A model generated the notes under the pieces. It was not told the origin of the DNA, did no database searches, and worked only from the letters and a program-made list of their open reading frames with translations. A stretch of DNA of 64,000 nt. It comes from Haliotis cracherodii. Its lineage: Eukaryota. A program made the translations under genes and the position numbers. Each line of letters opens with the position of its first letter. Within the stretch, counting starts at the first letter, position 1. Shown here in pieces: positions 22,382 through 62,564 of this stretch. The stretch is from NCBI RefSeq assembly GCF_022045235.1, contig NW_027266308.1:69006001-69070000 (forward strand), written 5' to 3'.

Positions 22382-25300
22382 ATGAGGTGAGTATCCACAC
22401 CACCCGCCATGCACGAAACTTTGCAACATCAGCTAGTAAATGATATTTTCATAGTCTTCGGCAATGGCCGAGCCAAGATCTGGGCCTGGGTCACTGTTGT
22501 TTACTCCAGACGATATGCTATTTATATCACCCTGTTTACCATCTCAGCTCCCACCGACTTCTACTCAGGAATGTGCAAGCGTAAATTTGGCAACTAGATA
22601 TTTGAGTCGCGTCATTTTGATAACATTCTGATAAATATTGATATATAAACCTCGTATCCTGTCATTAGAGCATCTTAATATCCACAAGCACTGGATGGCG
22701 GGGAATATTTCGCGGCCTGAATAATGCATCGCGCTAGACGTGTTTACATCAATGTTACACCGGGGATAGATGAGGGCCGTTGACTCCAGTCTGCGCCACT
22801 CTGCAGTTTACACCACATAGTCCCACGTACCCATCCTAGCGAACCATTATTCCAAGAATATGAGGTCGCGTGCTGCAAGCATTGCGTGATGCGACATCAT
22901 GTTTTAGTAGGAGATTGATTCCTTCGATAGGTTTACCAACAATATGAGGTAAGACGTATTTACTGTATACATTTCGTGTTGAATGTAAGTACGTATGTTG
23001 AAAGTTATCAGCGCGGCGTTTGTTTTTAAGACGTCTGTCACGGCTACATCTTTCCGACGAAGGAAACAAGGAGGTAGATCTTAATCTGAGGAACAAGTAG
23101 TGCGCCTGATTCTTAAAACGAACTAGCATACTTAAACGAATATATTTATTCCATGTGTTCGGAATTCGGTTTTTTGTTTGTACCCATGAATTTTCCATCA
23201 TCTAACGGAAGGTGTGTGTTCAGCTTCTGGAATCACAGCATGCAAAGCACCTGTGTTTTGAGGATGATATTGATGTATTTGAAATATGCTATTTATCAGG
23301 TGTAGCATTTGATTCCTGATATGTTTTTTATCACTTTTAAAGTTTTCGTAAAATTGTTTGGGCGTTTTTCACTAATCTATGTAAAAATACATCCTTTCTA
23401 CACATCCATCTTCAGTGTAGTGACAGACTGTGTTGAAGGAAGACCCTATTAGTACATAATTATACAGCACAGCTGGTCAATTAAGGGAGGTAACACAACA
23501 ATAATGCCAGAAAGGAATGGTAAAGTTTTTAGTTAAAACAGTGCATGACAAGGAAATAGTCCAATATGACGGGGTTAGGTGGAAGTAATAACACGGCATA
23601 TGGTGTATTATAGATCAGTTATGACAGCCAAGACATGTGTCTGTCTTATTTCCTCATTGATCCTGTTAGAGTGTTTTAGGTTGGCTTTGATCCATGTTAG
23701 GACTAACAGGTAACCCACATTTACGATTACAAGATACAAGTGTGTGTGATAACCGAAAGCGGTGTGGTAGTAAGATGCTATTGGTAAGTAGCATGGTCCT
23801 TTGTGTTTTGGAGTTATTTCCCTTTGTATTGTACAGGATGAGTATGTACAGTGGACAGTATATTCTCACCTTTCATTAACGTCAGACAGTGTATGACAGT
23901 AATATTGTCATGGCATGTATAGTAGAAACATCAGGTGTTTCTTGGACATGAGCTCCATGCAGATATGGAGCCTAAATGTATTTTTAAATGTTCATCAAAT
24001 TGTCATCTAAGGAGCATTGTGACATTAACCACAAGCAGCATGCATACTGTGCTGTGTGATATCATTGCACATTATTTCATCTGGCCCAGCAACCAATCGA
24101 TGGGTCAACTGCAACTGATACAGCCAGGATACCTACCAGGCACAATAAGATTAATAGTCAGCATTACATTAACTTAATGTTTGCTTTCATGTTTTCCCCC
24201 GTAGACGCCTCCCACATGGGGATACGTATGCAGAGTAGTTCCCCTGTGAGTATCACCGTAAATCCCATCCATGTTGGGATTCCAGGTTGAATTGTTCCCA
24301 AAGGCTACACCGATAGAACCCATTCTCGTGGGTATTCCGAATAGTTCCCCTGCTGGAACCCCACAGACACCACCGTGCGGGTATTCCAGGCAGAATAGTT
24401 GCCCCGTGGTTACCCTGCAGATGCTGCTGATGTGGTATTCTAGGCAGAATAGTTGACCCGTGGTTACCCTGCAGATGCTGCTGATGTGGTATTCTAGGCA
24501 GAATAGTTGCCCCGTGGTTACCCTGCAGATGCTGATGATGTGGTATTCTAGGCAGAATAGTTGCCCCGTGGTTACCCTGCAGATGCTGATGATGTGGTAT
24601 TCTAGGCAAAATAGTTTCCCCTTGGTTACCCTGTAAATGACGCTGATAGGTATTCTAGGCAGGAAAGTGCATCTGTGGGTTTCCCGTATATAAGCCCATG
24701 GGTTCAATTCCCGGTTCGCCCTGATAATGTTTCGAGGTTTGTCAACACCATACCCATGGGTTTCACCAAAGTGGTGAATGTAAACCTGGATCACTCAATT
24801 CAGGTTACATATAATTGAAATATTCATTCACTCCCAAATATTATGCTTTCAAAACTTGTCCCCCCAAGGTAGTTCCCGGTTAGAATTAACATTCCATGCT
24901 GGTTGTAAGAGGCGACTGGATTGGGTAGACATGCTCGGTGACCTGTTGTGTGTGTCTCATAATATCTGTATTTTTTTATTGTCCTGACCTACTGACCTAG
25001 AATGGTTTATTTACAGACTGTCATATAACTGATTGTTGAAATGCAAACAAACAAATACGAATCAATAGTTTTCTAGAAATAGACCTAACATGTCTGACCT
25101 TTTACTTCTCTTGCAGTGTCTTCAGTGATGTGGAACAACATGACTGTCGAGTGGTTGCCTCCGTAGTCAACAGTGACATCAGCGAAGAGGGGTTGCATCA
25201 GGGGCTCTTTGGCGTCATCAACCAGGAGTGTCCAAGATGCGTGGCTGCCATCTTAAAGTTTGGGGTTCCAACTGAGGTTCGTGATTCTGACCACTTCACG

Positions 25301-26914
25301 CCTCTAGCCGTCGCAGCCAAGGTGGGCTCAGCCCCGATCGTGGAGCTCCTGCTGCAATGGCACTGCAGTGCCTCATCCCCGAGTGGGCCCTTGGGAAACA
25401 CACCGCTACACAACGCATCAGCAGACGGCCATGTTGATTGTGTGCAATGTCTTATCAACGCCAATGCAGATATTAATGCCAGGAATACCCAAGAGGACAC
25501 TCCACTCATACTTGCCGCTATGCATGGCCACTTGCCAGTCGTGAAGCGATTGCTAGCCTTCCACGCCTCCGTCAGACGGAGGGGTTACCACGAGAGAACT
25601 GCCCTACACTGTGCAACAGAAAATGGACATTTGAGTGTCTGCAGGTTTCTAGTGAGTGCCAAAGCTGATTTAGAGGAAGAAGATACATTTGGCAATACTC
25701 CCTTGATATGTGCTGCCGAGAAGGGCTATGTGGAGCTGTTGAAGTTGTTTCTGTCCAACAAGTGTGATGTGAACCGCATGAGCCATAGTGCCGCCACTGC
25801 TCTCCACTACGCGGCTCAACATGGTGACAGCGTCTGCTGTGGGATACTTCTGCAGAACGGAGCCGAGATAGATGCCCAGGACATCCGCCGCTTCACACCG
25901 CTCATGATGGCCGCCATGAACGGCCATGATGACGTAGTGGGTATGCTCATAGATTGGAAATGCAATGTTAATATGGTGGCTTACAACAAGCGTATTGCCC
26001 TCCATCTGGCTGCTGAACGAGGCAAACTCAAGTGTTGTAGTCTTCTTTTGAACGCAGGCGCAAGCATCGATAGTCAAGACTCTCTGGGATGTACGCCAGT
26101 TCACATTGCAGCTCTCAAGGGGCATGTGCAGGTCATGAAGTATCTCATAACCAGCGGTGCTGATCTCCACAAAAGACCAAACAATGGCCACAGTCTCTTG
26201 CACTATGCAGCAGCCGGCGGCAACGAGGATTGCTGTCAAGAACTGATCTCCAGAGGCTTTGATATCAACGCCCAAAACAATGATGGAATCACGCCTCTCA
26301 TCAGCTCAGTACACACCAAGCAAGTGACGACCGCACAGCTACTGCTGCAGGCGGGATGCAAGACCACCTATCGTGGCCTTCATGGCATGACGGCGCTCAA
26401 CGAAGCAGTCTTCTACAACCACCCACTTCTGCTGTCAATGTTGTTAGATTACGGAGCCGACCCAGACATTGAGGACGATGCAGGAACTTTGCCGCTGTGG
26501 TTCGCCGTCGACCAGTCTTCCATGGAGAACCTGAAGCTGTTGCTGAGGTCAAACTGCGGGTTCAACATGAAATCCACACTGAGCAATTCCTGTGGGCCAT
26601 GCAACGCAATAGAGCACGCTCTGCACAAACAAAAAATTCAAGTCATCATTTGGCTAATTAGCACTTATTGTGAGGAGGCTGCCAATGTTCTTCGATCTCA
26701 CCTGTCCGAGTCAGACAAGTTATCTTCCATGAGCAAGACCTTCCTCGCCAATGTCCACGAGCAGCTTCAGGCACCACAGTCCCTGCTTTGTCTTTGTCGG
26801 AAGCAGATCAGAGCTGAGTTGGGTCAGGGGAAGATCATCACCAACAAGATCCGGCAGCTGAAACTGCCTAATGTTCTCAAGAACTTCCTGGACTTCAGCG
26901 ATCTCACGGAGTAG
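22382..26914 (+). CDS. Ankyrin repeat and C-terminal SOCS box protein (ASB-like E3 ligase substrate adaptor), ~600 aa
   Basis: ATGAG|GTGAGT at 22382-22386 splices in frame to TTGCAG|T at 25117 (MSVFSDVEQH...). One long exon runs to the stop at 26914 with many ankyrin repeats (GNTPLHNAS, TPLILAA, TALHCA...) and SOCS box PQSLLCLCRKQIR...IRQLKLPNVLKNFL. Confidence 0.9.
24381..24662. repeat. 54-bp tandem repeat, ~5 copies
   Basis: Unit GTATTCTAGGCAGAATAGTTGCCCCGTGGTTACCCTGCAGATGCTGATGATGTG. Confidence 0.9.
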
Positions 26915-37612: not shown

Positions 37613-37912
37613 TCTTCAGCAACCCATGCTTGTCGTAAGGGGCAACTCACTTACTTGGTTGATGCAGTTATCATATCACAATTGCGTAGTCGATGCTCAT
37701 GATGTCAATCACTTGACTGTCTGGTCCAAATTCTATTATTTATAGAAGGCCGTTATATGGTTGGACTATTGGAGTGCGTTAAACAACCAATCATCAATCA
37801 ATCAATCAATCAGTAGACCAATTCATCAATCCGGGTTCGTTTCCCAACTTGAGTTCTCTGAGCCTATTCTTATCCCTCTGAGAACTATACCCCACGCATT
37901 CACTACTTTCAG

Positions 37913-38690
37913 GGTACAGCTTCTGAAACAGCAACTGCAGGACAAGAACCCCAACAAGATGGAGAACCTGAGCCAGATACCCACCCTGGGGGACCAGCGT
38001 CTGTGTCACATCCACCGCAAGGTGTCCCGCGCTAGGAAGAACATCATCGTCCACAACGAGAAGATAAAGATGAGGAGTGACATCTTCGCCAAGAGCATCG
38101 ATCGACATAAGCAGACGGAGGACTTCCTTGGCTGGCAACGGAGCCTGCCCGTCAAGAGGTCCTTGATGGAGAAGAGAGGTCTTCAGAAGTGCTTGAGGAG
38201 GAAGCGCGAGGCAGCGTCCCTCACGAACCACCAAAAGCTGCTGTTCGGCATGTACGAGGGGGAGGACCTGACCTCCTTCAGACCTGAGATTCAGTCAATC
38301 ATCGATCGAATGCATCCCCGTGAACGACGGCTGAGGAAGGTGGAGCAGATGAAGGTGGAGGGGAAGGCGACAGGACGTCTTGTTGACTATAATCAATCAC
38401 TGGACAAGTTCCACACACTAATGGAAGATCACGACACGTTTTTGAGGTCAAGTTTTGAGAAACTCCGAGAAAAAGATCGAACCTCCACACCAGCCTATCT
38501 CACGAGAAGGCGGAGCACATTTCGCCTGCCGCCTATAGGAAACAGTAGGGTACATAGGTTTAACTCCAGACAGCAGACGACTAAAGCTGTGGACCATCTA
38601 CCCATTGTGTCCACACACAGACGGGACATTGTTCAGGGAAGGAGCGACCTTGAGCCGGTGGTCCCGAGGGCCAACACAATTATGACCTAG
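37913..38690 (+). CDS. Uncharacterised basic, helical protein (~243 aa from ATG 37959)
   Basis: Long GC-richer ORF preceded by a TACTTTCAG acceptor at 37912. Lys/Arg-rich with LPPI/LPIV motifs near the C-terminus. No domain recognised. Confidence 0.7.
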
Positions 38691-54042: not shown

Positions 54043-54310
54043 ACCCGTTAAGATTACGGGGTAGAATAGGTCTTCAGCAACCCGTGCTTGCCGTAAAAGG
54101 AGACTATGCTTGTCGTAAAAGGCGACTAACGGGATCGGGTGGTCAGACTCGCTGACTTGGTTGATACATGTCGTCGATGCCAATTGCGTGGACCGATGCT
54201 CATGATATCAATCACTGGATTGTCTGGTCCGGACTCGATTATTTACAGACCGCCGTCATATAGCTGGAATATTGCTGAGTGCGGCGTTAAACAACAAACC
54301 AACCAACCAA
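54043..54310 (+). mobile_element. ~270-bp short retroposon without tRNA head (about 14 copies in the window)
   Basis: Starts ACCCGTKAAGAT, contains GCTTGTCGTAAGAGGCGACTAAC, ends GGAATATTGCTGAGTGCGGCGTTAAACAACAAAC(CAAC/AAAC)n. Copies at ~2963, 9227, 17655, 18942, 24870, 32335, 34988, 37611, 41665, 43857, 48087, 56503 and 59576. Confidence 0.8.
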
Positions 54311-55873: not shown

Positions 55874-57211
55874 ACTAATAGGATCCAGTGTGATAGGTTA
55901 GGATTATCAAGGAAATATTATTTTCATTCACTATTTTGAAACAATATCCATGATATCTAGTATCTTAGGTGGTACAGTGTATGTCGTATCCATTTCCTTA
56001 TTCTGGATCGAAATATTTCCTGGTATCAGGTATCAATTTCAATCCTGCGTGTCAGTCATATTTTCTTGCCAAACAAAAGAAATCTAATTCAAATTTCCTG
56101 CGTTATGTGAAGCATACAATGTCAGTCATAAAATAAATGCTTGACAACTGACATTGTATTAAATAGCCAAGTTCATTGTGTTGCTGAGTTAGTTGCCATT
56201 CTTGGTGGTGGGGAAAATAAAAGTGTTCCTCTTTTCTTTCAAACATAAAATATAATTCAACCCCACCACCCTCATCACTTGAGATAAGTGTGACCAAGAA
56301 ACATTTAATGTTTATGACTGTTACAAATGAGTGCACAGTTGGTGATGTTAACCTCCCTTTCCCTGTATGAAAATACTGATGATCCCGTGAAGACGTGGGT
56401 TAGAATGTAGCTGGAATACAAGCAAGTGTGAAGTCCACACAAGACAATGGTACTTCATGTTACATCCTGCATGGGGAGATTATTAAGCTATTTCTCAAGT
56501 GTTGTTTGTTTGTTTGTTGTTTAATGCCACACTCAGCAATATTCCAGCTAAATGACAGCGGTCTGTAAATAATCGGTGGTCTGTAAATAATCGAGTCGAC
56601 AATCCAGTGATTGACAACATGTGCATCGATTCACTCAATTAGGATAAAAAACATGCATCAACCACATCAGTGAGTCTGACCACCCAATCCTGTTAGTCGC
56701 CTCTTACGACAAGCACAGTCACCTTTTATGGCAAACAGGTGTAAAACATTAAAACATGACAGAAACATATACACATATGCACCAGTTGAAAGTAGAACTG
56801 CAAAGCGCAATGTGAAAAGTAGCAATGTACAGGTCAGGATTCATTCAAACGGAAAATACAATAGAAATCTTCCTCCCTAAAACATTACCAGGATAACAGC
56901 CTCTAGTCATGTGAATGGACTTTAGTAATGGTATTACAGCACATACAGACAGTGGTATGATCTTTTAGTACTTAATGATATTACTGCCATGTGTACATAC
57001 AAGCTACATGTGCCATGGTACAGAAATATTGAAAATTCAAGCACAAAACTGGTCCACTAGACCACCAAACAATTCATGATATTCATTTTGAGATATGAAG
57101 CACAGTAGACACAAGGTCATTTCAGAGTGATGATAATTGCATAATTAGTTATGTTTTGGATTATGTGATTAAACCCCGTCCACATTTTGTTACAATCCTC
57201 TTGAAATGACC

Positions 57212-58982
57212 TTAATGTGTTACCATGGTTACAAGTGGTGGCTGGAGGTTACTCAGTGCAGCACATACATAGAAAATCTTGGAAACTTGTTCACTTCTTG
57301 TGAGGGGAATGACACCTTGTAAGATCCGAAAATGTTTAATTCGCTCTATTGCCTTTTCAACATGAATACGCAAGTTTGCAATTTTTCTCATACTCTCAAC
57401 CTCTCTTTCAGTTAATTTACAGTTCTTTTCCTTCTTTGGTGGAATTATCAAATGGACATTCTTTGAACACAGTAGATCTGCAATCTGAAATCCTTCATCA
57501 GCAATTACTCCATCGCCACTGTCCAATCCATTAAGAAATCCACTCTCTTCAGTAATCTGTTTGTCAGAAATACTTCCTGCCCAAAGGTCACTGACATATG
57601 TGACGACTCCCGATGGACTAGTTCCCACTAAAACCTTCCATGTCACGAGCCGTCTGTAATCCGAGTATATCGGAGTTCTGTTTCCCAGTGAGTCCGGAGT
57701 TTCAGTATACACCTCAGTACAAGCTATGACAACTCGCGTGGTTGGGTACGTTGACTGACAGGACTCTGGCATGTTAAGTCTCACAGTTTCTTGTGATGGC
57801 CAGTATATTTGGAAACTAAGGCCAAAATACATTTTGTCAATCCAAGAATTGAAAATTGAACTGACAGCTGAAGCAGATACCCGAAACCGCTTTGCCAAGT
57901 CCAACACCAAAAGGCCAAGACGTAGTCTCATGAGCACCATAAAAAATTGATCCTTTAGAGTAAGTTCATGGGGCTTTAATTCATGTTTGTTTGTATCAGA
58001 ATCTTCAGTAAGTTCATCAAACAGCACAGTGAAGCTGTTCTTGTCTGGCAGACCAGTATAAAACAGCATCTCTGCATCCGTAAGGTCATCCACAGTGAGC
58101 CAAGGCCTGTGACTGTTGCTGTTGTCGGTTAAATGCGAATTGTCGGTCATGCTTACAGGAAAGTTTGTCTGTGTGCATGCATCTTGTGCACATGGTGTAA
58201 CGGTTACTTCCTGATGTCGGAAGTCTGCAACTGTTCTGATGTCCTCTGTGTCCAGCCTGTCCACGTAGTCATGCATCAGTACCGATACGTCAAGGCTGGA
58301 TAGGGAGGAATGGGACTTCAGTCGGGGAGGGCACCTGCGTCGGGGGGCCTCGCTTTCACTATCAGTTGCTGAATTCTCCCGTTCTTCATGTGCAGCGTCA
58401 GGTGTGACAACATACAGGTCCTGTAACTGAAAACAACAATCAGGACAATGGTGCTTTATTTTATTTCAATGACAACATCAACACTGATTGATTTCGATTG
58501 TGAATATTCTTCCACATCATGAAAGAAATTGCCAATGTCAGTATAACTTTGATCATAATCATAACATAGTTGGAACTAGTTGTAAATGATAAATCAGTAT
58601 TTTTTATAGAATTTATGAAATTATTTCAAATAATTTAGCCCTAGATAAGATAACGTTCGGACTACGAATAGCATTTATCAATCGTGTCAGCTGATGTAGT
58701 ATTTACCTTGGTACTTTTGAAGACTTTGTGGTGGAATATGGACGGCAGATTCACCTCGGAGGTAGGTCCTCGTCTTCCCTCGAAGTGTTCCGAGCACAAC
58801 CGGGTCCAGGATCTCACTGTGAAGTTTTTCCTACCGAGTCTACATGACCATATACTCTTTAACTTACGATTCCTTGAAGAGTTTCCGGAAGGAAAACGAT
58901 GTAAGCTTACGGTCCTGCCATGCACTACCTTGCCGCTATAGTTGGAGCAGCCCACAACACAACAGTACGTCCTTCCAGACAT
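57212..58982 (-). CDS. THAP zinc finger + HTH + DDE_Tnp_4 (Harbinger/ISL2EU-type) transposase-derived protein, ~496 aa, 2 exons
   Basis: Exon 58982-58707 encodes a THAP domain (CCVVGCSN..LHRFP..W..RLCSEHF..LPSIF) and ends AAG|GTAAAT. The acceptor at 58426 (or 58420) is in frame with ORF 57212..58276, which carries an HTH (DQFFMVLMRLRLGL..DLAKRFRVS) and a DDE core (VIACTE, ADEGF, RIHVEKAIERIK). Confidence 0.88.
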
Positions 58983-59029
58983 TGTGTCTTCTTTCACTCA
59001 TCAAGTTCTAAACGTAAAACCGCCAAGCG

Positions 59030-59041
59030 CTCCGGAAGTGG
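59030..59041. promoter_or_regulatory. ETS/GABP-type site upstream of the THAP-transposase gene
   Basis: CCGGAAGTG ~50 bp upstream of the ATG at 58982 in a CpG-containing stretch. Motif match only. Confidence 0.35.
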
Positions 59042-61102
59042 CTTAGGCTGTGACGATAAGAGTGAACTGCCACTAAACTGCCTGTCTGCACAAAGTCTTG
59101 TGTAGCGTGCGCAACAGAGACAGGGGACCAGTCCAGGGCGGAGAACGGTGCGTTTGTGTTTTCCATTGACAGAAGAGTTCTGTCTTATCGCGACATTCTG
59201 GAAGAATATATAGATCATAAAGTGATTTGCATGAAAAAAATTACATAGGAACCTTTTCAATTGCAGTGAATCCTGATATATTTACAGCCCCGAAATATGC
59301 ATTTCTTCAAAATTAGAATGAAGTCGTTATTGAAGAACAGAACATCGATTTTTTTTCTGTATTTTAAAAAGTAATTTACAATGAGAAGCAATCATATATA
59401 GGTGCCCTTTATCTTATAATCTGTCAGTCCAAGTCGTTTGTTTGGGTTCTTATCATGAAAATTTGCAACAAACACACACAGGTGGCCGAACTTGGGATGG
59501 CTAGTTTCCTTCTGTCGTCTTTCCCACTTGTGTTTATACCTGATACAAACATGCAAGGCGGTAGATAACTGGACGTTGGTTTGTTGTTTAACGCCGCACT
59601 CAGCAATATTCCAACTATATGACGGCGGTCTGTAAATAATCGAATCAGGACCAGACAATCCAGTGATCTACATCATGAGCATCGATCTACACAATTGGCA
59701 GAGATGACATGCATCAACCAAGTCAGCGAGTCTGACCACCCGATCCCGTTAGTCGCCTTTTATGACAAGCATAGTCGCCTTTCACGGCAAGCACGGGTTG
59801 GTGAAGACCTATTCTACCCCGGATCTTCACGGGTTGATCCAATTGGAAAGATTACTATTTCTAAAACTGTTTGTATTACCAGAATCTAGGCTGTAAATAG
59901 TAGGGATGATATATACAGAATTCTGGTTTTATATATATAATTAATTCCCTCACATAGTAATATCTTTGGTGAAGAGTAGAATACTCATATATTTTCTAAG
60001 TCAACTCCCCGGCATGTAGTTATATAAATAGCTCATGCTTCACTGTCTATAGGTTTGAAACATCACAAACGGATGTTCACCAGAAATCACCATCGATAGC
60101 CGCCAATATTGCCTCACTCGTTACATAACGCAGTATATTGTCACGTGTTTCAGGTAATGAAGGCGGACGTGCAGGCTACAATATGTTTCAAACTGTTTAA
60201 AATATTCGATCTAAAATCAAATGATTCCAGTGAAATTAAATTAAATTTTAATGAATTTAGAACAAGGATTTTCATCAACAACAAATGTACTATCGATTTT
60301 ACACACTTTGCACAACGTTGCTAGCCGGATCAGAATATATAGCAAACTAAGGCCACACCAGACTGATTACTTGATCGGCGGTTTCGTTTCCCATAACAAA
60401 AATACATCAAACATGCTGCATGGAACATTGCCTCACATATCGCTGATATGGTTTTAAAAAATCAGATGTCGAATTATACCTATTAACGTATAATATCTAC
60501 ATATAGCTATAGTCATGGCTAGTGCATTGATAGAAAGTGTATCTTGATCAGTAATGATTCAACTGACACTTGTACCGTTTACATTTCATACCTATTTATT
60601 GAAGGATTTGTAGTTTAAAAGAAAGATTAAAAAGTTTCCAGCTCATTACTTTTGACCAAACCTCCGACAAACAACTAATTAGTTTAGTGTGGCCTCAGCA
60701 AATCATGGCGCGGGACTATGTGCGCGGTTGACAAGGTGTGGCGACAGATGTCGTCTCGCCAGATGCCGGCATATTGTAATGCGGTTATCGTGTGGGACAT
60801 GCGTAGACAAGACGGTGGCTGGCCCAGAAGGTTGGGCAGTAATACTAACAGTTCAGTATGTTCATGTAAAAAGGACTTGTTTTTTCGTTCGGTTAAGTCA
60901 CAAGATTGCTCCAAAATGATATCTTTGTTTGTTAATCCGATTTACCGCATTTTCTGTGCAAGTAGTCTAAAGCACAGGCCCCTGAGGTCAAAAGGGGGGA
61001 TTTGGTATTAGTGATCTCCGTGACCTTGATGAATAGTCAGTCAACCAAACGTTATTTAACAAAATAAGGATAATAGTAAATCTCCCCCCCCCCTCCCCTT
61101 TA

Positions 61103-62143: not shown

Positions 62144-62564
62144 ATGTCGGACGAGAATACAAATCACGATGAAAAGGTACCGATTAAAGAAGCTGATGCT
62201 GTAAATGCCGAGATCGACCTTGATGACTCGAAAGCCAAATTTCTGAATGGCGGTAAAGGCATGGACGAGTCCCATGTCGAAATTGAAGTTCCCTCTGAAT
62301 CCAACGAATCGTTCTCTGGCCTAGGAAAAGATGAATTGATGCAGTATGTGAACGATCCATTTTGGAAACGACTCCGAATCATCTTGTTCGTACTCTTTTG
62401 GGTCGGCTGGGTAGCGATGTTGGCGGCAGCCATTGTCATCATCGTCCTGGCTCCTCGCTGCCCTTACCGCCCCGATCTGAAATGGTACAACAAGGAGGCC
62501 GTCTACAACGCATATCCGAAGAGCTTCAAGGACTCTGATGGAAACGGAAAGGGAGATCTCAGTG
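62144..62564 (+). CDS. SLC3A family amino acid transporter heavy chain (4F2hc/rBAT-like), first coding exon; gene continues beyond the window
   Basis: FSGLGKDELMQYVNDPFWKRLRIILFVLFWVGWVAMLAAAIVIIVLAPRC is the SLC3A N-terminal/TM signature with the bridging Cys. It is followed by the alpha-amylase-like start YPKSFKDSDGNGKGDL. Donor G|GTAGGT at 62564/62565. Confidence 0.9.

Follow-up and report, generated by a model that had tools for sequence, protein, structure and literature searches.

We analysed a 64,000-nucleotide (nt) window of the Haliotis cracherodii genome (contig NW_027266308.1, positions 69,006,001 to 69,070,000 of the forward strand; all coordinates below are those of the window), in which a spliced frame on the minus strand encodes a protein of 496 amino acids in two exons with a single terminal stop. 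An original prediction, made from the letters alone, had described an open reading frame (ORF) of about this length with a THAP domain, a helix-turn-helix (HTH) and a DDE core, had read it as a domesticated THAP-fused transposase whose first catalytic Asp is replaced, and had named copy number, syntenic orthologs, fixation of the Asp-to-Ala change, the ratio of non-synonymous to synonymous rates (dN/dS, omega) and expression as ways to check it. The gene model is borne out by reconstruction of the frame, by Pfam and by an annotated, uncharacterised H. cracherodii protein of 496 amino acids (XP_071079603) that is 100% identical across exon 2. For comparison we used contigs of runs X2 and X7 (organism A, treated as the window species), X10 (organism B) and X17 (organism C); X2 and X10 are DNA runs, and X7 and X17 were taken as RNA, a guess from their splice joints only. 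The features of the gene are as follows (UTR, untranslated region).

58982-58707, minus strand: exon 1, codons 1-92, with the THAP C2CH zinc module C7, C12, C63, H66 (Pfam THAP, E=5e-11)
58706-58427, minus strand: GT-AG intron of 280 nt, precisely removed in X7 and X17 contigs, retained in DNA runs X2 and X10
58426-57212, minus strand: exon 2, codons 93-496 and stop, with an acidic linker, the HDY motif, the HTH and the DDE core
58376-58378, minus strand: codon 109 (Glu), a stop only in the X7 spliced contig (contig comparison)
58265-58276, minus strand: MHDY, codons 143-146, an ancestral family motif and not an HCF-1 consensus site
57824-57970, minus strand: HTH_Tnp_4, residues 245-293 (Pfam, E=1e-15), containing part of the predicted homodimer interface
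57248-57724, minus strand: DDE_Tnp_4 core, residues 327-485 (Pfam, E=5e-39), net charge 0 against a family median of +9
57722-57724, minus strand: A327 (GCT codon) where the family has its first catalytic Asp, the opening position of the PHIS motif
57494-57499, minus strand: D402, the second catalytic Asp, kept, and E403, which is K/R in the family alignment
57356-57358, minus strand: E449, the catalytic Glu, kept, then K450, which is R in the family alignment
58983-59351, minus strand: 5′ UTR as covered by spliced contigs, to 59062 in X7 and to 59351 in X17
56760-57211, minus strand: 3′ UTR covered by the X7 spliced contig, which continues past 56760

ISL2EU elements encode a THAP-HTH-DDE transposase and a YqaJ ORF, have terminal inverted repeats (TIRs) starting with GG and make AT target duplications (PMC4482050). 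The abalone protein has the three parts of such a transposase, and the positions of the PHIS motif, D(19-29)K(29)D(18-40)D(11-19)P(18-28)R(3)E (PMC4122938), fall at its residues 327, 350, 380, 402, 421, 445 and 449. The DDE triad of a mobile ISL2EU element is not intact in it, reading A327, D402 and E449. As the original prediction had stated, the family's IDCTE has become IACTE, the codon at 57724-57722 being GCT. Column 327 is Asp in all 119 other 90%-cluster matches listed (120 of the 156 matches are listed) and in 143 of 149 representatives at 50%. A second motif thought to be altered, DEGF, is real as sequence; its Asp, however, is the retained second catalytic residue D402, and the altered residue is its neighbour (K403E, a column that is Lys in 114 of the 119 relatives listed). 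The catalytic Glu is also kept, flanked by R450K. Because of D327A, of known DDE chemistry and of the drastic loss of transposition that one triad mutation causes in the rice PIF/Harbinger element Ping (as stated in PMC4671723), the abalone protein would be expected to have no transposition catalysis.

The changes extend beyond the triad. Among 111 relatives, the median number of deviations at the 82 columns with at least 90% conservation is 2, whereas this protein has 14; 13 of these are found in H. rufescens as well, that is, they changed before the split of the two species, and no stop or frameshift accompanies them. When a broader set of 102 intact relatives is used, deviations at the 90% level number 4 of 39 columns in the core and 0 of 15 in the THAP domain and HTH. 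The THAP domain keeps all 16 columns conserved at 60% or more in the family and has a net charge of +11; 12 of the 102 intact relatives have a DDE core with a charge as low as that of the abalone protein, and the arm preceding the HTH reads LKPH in the abalone protein versus GRPR in the family.

The partner ORF and the ends of a mobile element, which the original prediction had reported missing, were indeed not found. There were no matches to YqaJ or Myb/SANT among 77 flanking ORFs, and tblastn with the YqaJ-bearing regions of two fused relatives gave a best E of 0.49. No TIR pair was found flanking the gene. GG..CC pairs with at most 3 mismatches in 14 nt number 30 (9-27 in shuffles), 16 of them from one dispersed repeat; none of the 30 has an AT target duplication, and the remaining inverted matches lie within shuffle counts. 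The strongest inverted matches were rejected as TIRs, being two inverted copies (54057-54303 and 59575-59821) of a dispersed repeat of about 250 nt, presumably SINE-like (short interspersed element). This repeat has three copies, the third at 56500-56742, which are 81-93% alike, and two of them are inverted around the gene. Copy number was assessed on contigs of the two DNA runs at 80% likeness, where no second long copy of the gene was seen; in X10, a single 2799-nt contig spans 56792-59560. Only the short stretches 58394-58477 and 59082-59133 match other contigs.

The first of these stretches, which covers the intron end and the start of exon 2, is 82-87% alike over 73-84 nt to a few other contigs in both DNA runs; the matches are possibly remnants of related elements or another small repeat. 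The second is about 50 nt long, lies in the 5′ UTR or upstream region and has counterparts in other contigs of three runs; some of these contigs have a complementary GGACTGGTCCC-like arm directly beside it, which suggests that it is one remaining arm of a short palindromic dispersed repeat. The region 59040-59170 folds no better than shuffles (z=0.77). Separately, two database proteins, P0186 and P0215, hold a DDE_Tnp_4 transposase and a YqaJ exonuclease within one predicted protein, which is either a fused ISL2EU form or a gene-calling join.

The gene is spliced in two organisms. Contigs of X7 and X17 omit 58427-58706 exactly, and the DNA runs keep the intron. These contigs carry no information on level, tissue or start site, and their ends in the 5′ UTR are not equal to transcription starts.

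The 90% cluster comprises three members, namely the H. cracherodii protein, H. rufescens XP_046364297 (18 differences in 496 residues, 96% identical) and a record of 353 amino acids, and A327, E403 and K450 are present in all of them. A gene resembling SLC3A starts at 62144, head-to-head with the transposase-derived gene, and the H. cracherodii gene and SLC3A proteins are both on a 70,628,833-bp scaffold. In H. rufescens, the scaffolds of XP_046364297 and of SLC3A XP_046364288 are both 3,194,372 bp long and the two accessions are nine apart, which points, indirectly and through one neighbour, to a syntenic locus beside SLC3A. The common ancestor of East Pacific abalone is dated to 4.3 million years ago (Ma) and its split from West Pacific species to 36.4 Ma (bioRxiv 10.1101/2024.09.16.613283); the gene, and with it the domestication, is at least 4.3 Ma old. 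Three protein searches, among them one for shorter forms (59 matches, best identity 59%) and one over 50% representatives, gave no ortholog of 60-90% identity, the longer-protein range not being included for this gene. SLC3A of H. rubra and H. asinina is in the database at 81-82% identity, yet the searches gave no such ortholog of the gene from either species, so an age below 36 Ma is probable, barring loss or missing annotation in those species. The H. rubra protein P0020, which has an intact DDE triad and is encoded on a different scaffold from H. rubra SLC3A, was rejected as an ortholog. In a tree of 42 rows picked from database matches, Repbase ISL2EU references not being among them, the three abalone members form a clade (100/100) with a stem of 0.86 changes per site and tips of about 0.02; given this long stem, no donor family is identified.

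We then compared the coding sequence between abalone lineages. Over codons 189-496, the window and X10 differ by 10 non-synonymous and 12 synonymous changes (22 differences at 57215-58136 on one X10 contig, from the 40 of 109 listed, with the stretch assumed complete), which gives an omega of 0.23-0.27 (Fisher p 0.0009-0.003), or 0.30 (p 0.006) without the boundary codon. Synonymous divergence is 5-6%, the same as that of the 3′ flank (19/371). X10 has no indels in 1491 coding nt versus 8 in about 1278 non-coding nt (p 0.002), and the sole coding indel of X17 is an in-frame one of 18 nt in the linker. For comparison with the 18 protein differences between H. cracherodii and H. rufescens, the host gene SLC3A has 15 in 635 residues. 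In a neutral decay model, and under its assumptions, an intact frame with the 13 pre-split changes would survive with a probability of 1e-9 to 7e-4; for the path between the window and X10 alone, a rough model gives 2e-6 to 3e-4 under neutrality. The domesticated insect PIF genes APLG1, APLG2 and BPLG2 have an omega of 0.25-0.33 (PMC9710019). Because D327A is shared and predates the split, the selection is not on transposition: the gene has been under purifying selection after immobilisation.

The AlphaFold2 model of the protein has a mean pLDDT (predicted local distance difference test) of 84.7 and a pTM (predicted template modelling score) of 0.65, with low values in the linker. In Foldseek it resembles DDE integrases and transposases most, though every match is weak (one at E<=0.001), and by sequence no solved Harbinger-type core was matched, only THAP structures. 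A two-copy model of residues 200-492 scored 0.58, against 0.02 for the best of three controls, with a contact agreement between runs of at least 62% and a pLDDT of 83. No monomer passed the mark used (0 of 23 in the microbial set, 0 of 30 in the eukaryotic one); homodimers passed it in 21 of 30 microbial cases and in 17 of 29 eukaryotic ones (7 of 16 in animals; 1 of 7 where no older relative had been solved). The predicted interface is formed by FY 214-215, helix 262-272 and 462-464; 12 of its 16 residues are the family's commonest and all 16 are common to H. rufescens. The HTH-DDE core is thus predicted to still pair with itself. In the mechanism that we propose, the intact basic THAP domain would select DNA sites, which might be former ISL2EU ends dispersed across the genome, the dead and charge-neutral core would hold two THAP domains together, and the surface of the core might be offered to chromatin cofactors by analogy with ALP1 and PRC2. 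The route would not involve a canonical HCF-1 motif.

Taken together, we read the locus as a spliced gene of ISL2EU-type transposase origin that at least two abalone lineages have kept under purifying selection. It likely encodes a homodimeric DNA-binding regulator rather than a nuclease, and we give this reading as a whole a probability of roughly 0.52. Domestication itself, the core of the original prediction, is probable; several of the checks that it had named came out in its favour, with no second close copy in the contigs of two DNA runs, splicing in two organisms, an Asp-to-Ala change that H. rufescens shares, a counterpart on a scaffold of the same length as that of SLC3A, and a dN/dS of about 0.25, below 1. 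Given domestication, a role in the regulation of host genes is fairly probable. Several observations weigh against this reading. The X7 spliced contig of organism A has a stop at codon 109 (E109*; difference at 58378, depth 14) that is absent from the window and from DNA run X2; X7 is the one of three such runs that the comparison covered. Candidate explanations are an error of the contig, a null allele still segregating and an allele that keeps THAP only. A recessive null would appear among about five haplotypes with a probability of about 0.05 at s=0.01 and 0.4 at s=1e-4; finding E109* at such odds therefore speaks for weak selection or a contig error, and this nonsense variant in one contig tempers any claim of present-day importance. 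Splicing alone is no proof of domestication, because ISL2EU transposons are themselves transcribed, as active elements are in fish (PMC9179366). The changes found only in X10 are 5 non-synonymous to 3 synonymous (those common to X10 and X17 are 5:9), and the divergence of X10 in the intron and the upstream DNA does not exceed about 2.6%, a lower baseline on which the deficit over the whole protein weakens to a p of 0.03. The dN/dS comes from one individual per lineage, with polymorphism mixed in, and from 22 differences only. The contrast between a kept THAP domain and a changed core is not significant (Fisher p 0.11-0.52), and the dimer model may owe its pass to likeness to solved complexes.

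A competitor to a working regulator is that the gene has become a relic: it would be either an immobilised copy or a formerly useful gene on which selection is now weak or relaxed, and would owe its transcription to an active promoter region nearby, head-to-head with SLC3A. The presence of E109* in one of the two runs of the window species fits this explanation, as do the X10-only changes, a change at the invariant family residue K350 in the window lineage, the short span of 4.3 Ma between the species compared and the lack of a 60-90% ortholog in the three protein searches; against these, non-synonymous changes and coding indels have both been significantly scarce since the split, and the rough model gives an intact frame on the window-X10 path a low neutral probability. 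We hold a relic unlikely. A different use for the same dead protein would be as a domesticated transposon repressor, sitting on ISL2EU ends through its THAP domain or poisoning active transposases in mixed dimers, for which P-element repressor-type neogenes offer a parallel. Abalone do have an ISL2EU-type family with an intact DDE triad, the P0021 cluster, whose 12 members are spread over several scaffolds and come chiefly from H. rufescens; the interface predicted for the dimer resembles that of the family, and a THAP-only E109* allele could retain such a role. The P0021 family, however, is only 44-52% identical and on another branch, and no close cognate element was found at 80% DNA likeness in the contigs of the two DNA runs, which makes a repressor rather doubtful. 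That the gene belongs to a current multi-copy transposon family and is moved in trans is scarcely credible: it keeps the full transposase architecture, but X10 covers it with one contig, no second full-length copy is seen in either DNA run at 80%, TIRs and a YqaJ ORF were not found, and in H. rufescens it shares its scaffold with SLC3A.

A THAP factor that recruits HCF-1 through MHDY, the route that the original prediction had favoured, is very improbable. The motif is present at codons 143-146; the HCF-1-binding consensus is Asp/Glu-His-X-Tyr (PMC13631171), and neither the abalone protein nor that of H. rufescens contains [D/E]HxY. HDY occupies the same columns in 64 of the 119 relatives with Asp at 327 (32 are gapped there), and is therefore inherited from the transposase, and the residue before HxY is Asp or Glu in none of 67 HxY rows. 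In favour of recruitment, THAP8 binds HCF-1 without a canonical motif (PMC13631171), and 39 of 149 distant family representatives have a true [D/E]HxY somewhere (a raw count), so that HDY may be a degenerate form and some ISL2EU transposases may carry an HCF-1-type motif. The site reported just upstream of the gene, CACTTCCGG at 59040-59032, inside the spliced contigs, which we take to be ETS-like, is present as a sequence but is at chance level, with a match in 20 of 100 shuffles.

Elsewhere in the window, a gene of the AlkB family of 2OG-Fe(II) oxygenases, called ALKBH1 in the original prediction, ends near 51030. A tandem array with a 26-nt unit in about 35 copies lies at 52079-53002. On the plus strand, 25040-26914 is a single-exon frame of 624 codons with many ankyrin repeats and a C-terminal SOCS box, an ASB-like gene, and 37746-38690 is an open frame of 314 codons with no Pfam match at E<=0.01.

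Related proteins in other animals have also lost catalytic residues. In Biomphalaria, a THAP-HTH-DDE protein (P0167/P0440-P0445) has Ser at the first Asp and further changes flanking the triad, lies on another branch of the tree, and is found in B. glabrata (LOC106050787) and B. pfeifferi (485 of 490 residues identical). The Pampus argenteus protein P0273, likewise a THAP-HTH-DDE protein, also has Ser at the first catalytic Asp, and the Elysia protein P0166 is without the second and third triad residues. Judged by their sequences, the Biomphalaria and Pampus proteins are candidates for independent ISL2EU domestication. It is conceivable, though we put it forward tentatively, that ISL2EU is a recurrent source of THAP transcription factors, in which lineages (abalone by Asp to Ala, Biomphalaria by Asp to Ser, possibly fish by Asp to Ser) separately lost the first Asp and YqaJ while retaining the dimer core and their THAP domain; abalone would then offer a young case (4-36 Ma) in which a THAP-only allele may still segregate. 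A literature search, short on subscription papers and without supplements, found nothing on an ISL2EU-derived host gene or on the abalone gene.

The abalone gene is probably a young domesticated ISL2EU transposase, the product of a known process: domesticated Harbinger-like nucleases include HARBI1, ALP1 and the insect PIF genes. ISL2EU transposases carry their own THAP domain, and therefore the loss of one Asp could make a self-contained transcription factor. Without a shown function, the gene is one more candidate in a well-known evolutionary process; its youth, its restriction to one lineage and the existence of close relatives and population genomes would make the birth of a THAP factor datable and testable. 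With the ISL2EU transposons of the PHIS/Harbinger-like superfamily (PMC4482050, PMC4122938, PMC9179366) the protein shares its THAP, HTH and DDE architecture, a spacing of D(22)K(29)D(21)D(18)P(23)R(3)E that fits PHIS if A327 is counted as the first D, and about 48% identity to intact mollusc transposases; it differs in the Ala at the first Asp, in that no TIR, AT duplication, YqaJ ORF or second copy was found, and in its fixed place beside SLC3A in two species. Arabidopsis ALP1, a domesticated PIF/Harbinger nuclease in PRC2 (PMC4671723), has a Harbinger-like origin, a broken triad and a kept fold in common with it, but is ancient, reads DGA, having lost the second and third triad residues, and is not fused to a DNA-binding domain, whereas the abalone protein is young, has lost the first Asp and is fused to a THAP domain. 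The insect PIF-derived genes APLG, LPLG and BPLG (PMC9710019) were recognised by the same signs of domestication (synteny, single copy, no TIR), and APLG1, APLG2 and BPLG2 have a similar dN/dS of 0.25-0.33; the insect genes are of PIF/Harbinger origin, have MADF partners and are much older, whereas the abalone gene is of ISL2EU origin and its partner ORF is gone. THAP9, named with HARBI1 as domesticated (PMC5753468), and the host THAP factors (PMC13631171, PMC5753468) likewise begin with a C2CH THAP module, joined to a protein of transposase or host origin. THAP9, however, is of P-element origin and has kept its activity, and most host THAP factors have [D/E]HxY and a coiled coil, whereas the abalone protein is without that motif and would pair through its dead transposase core.

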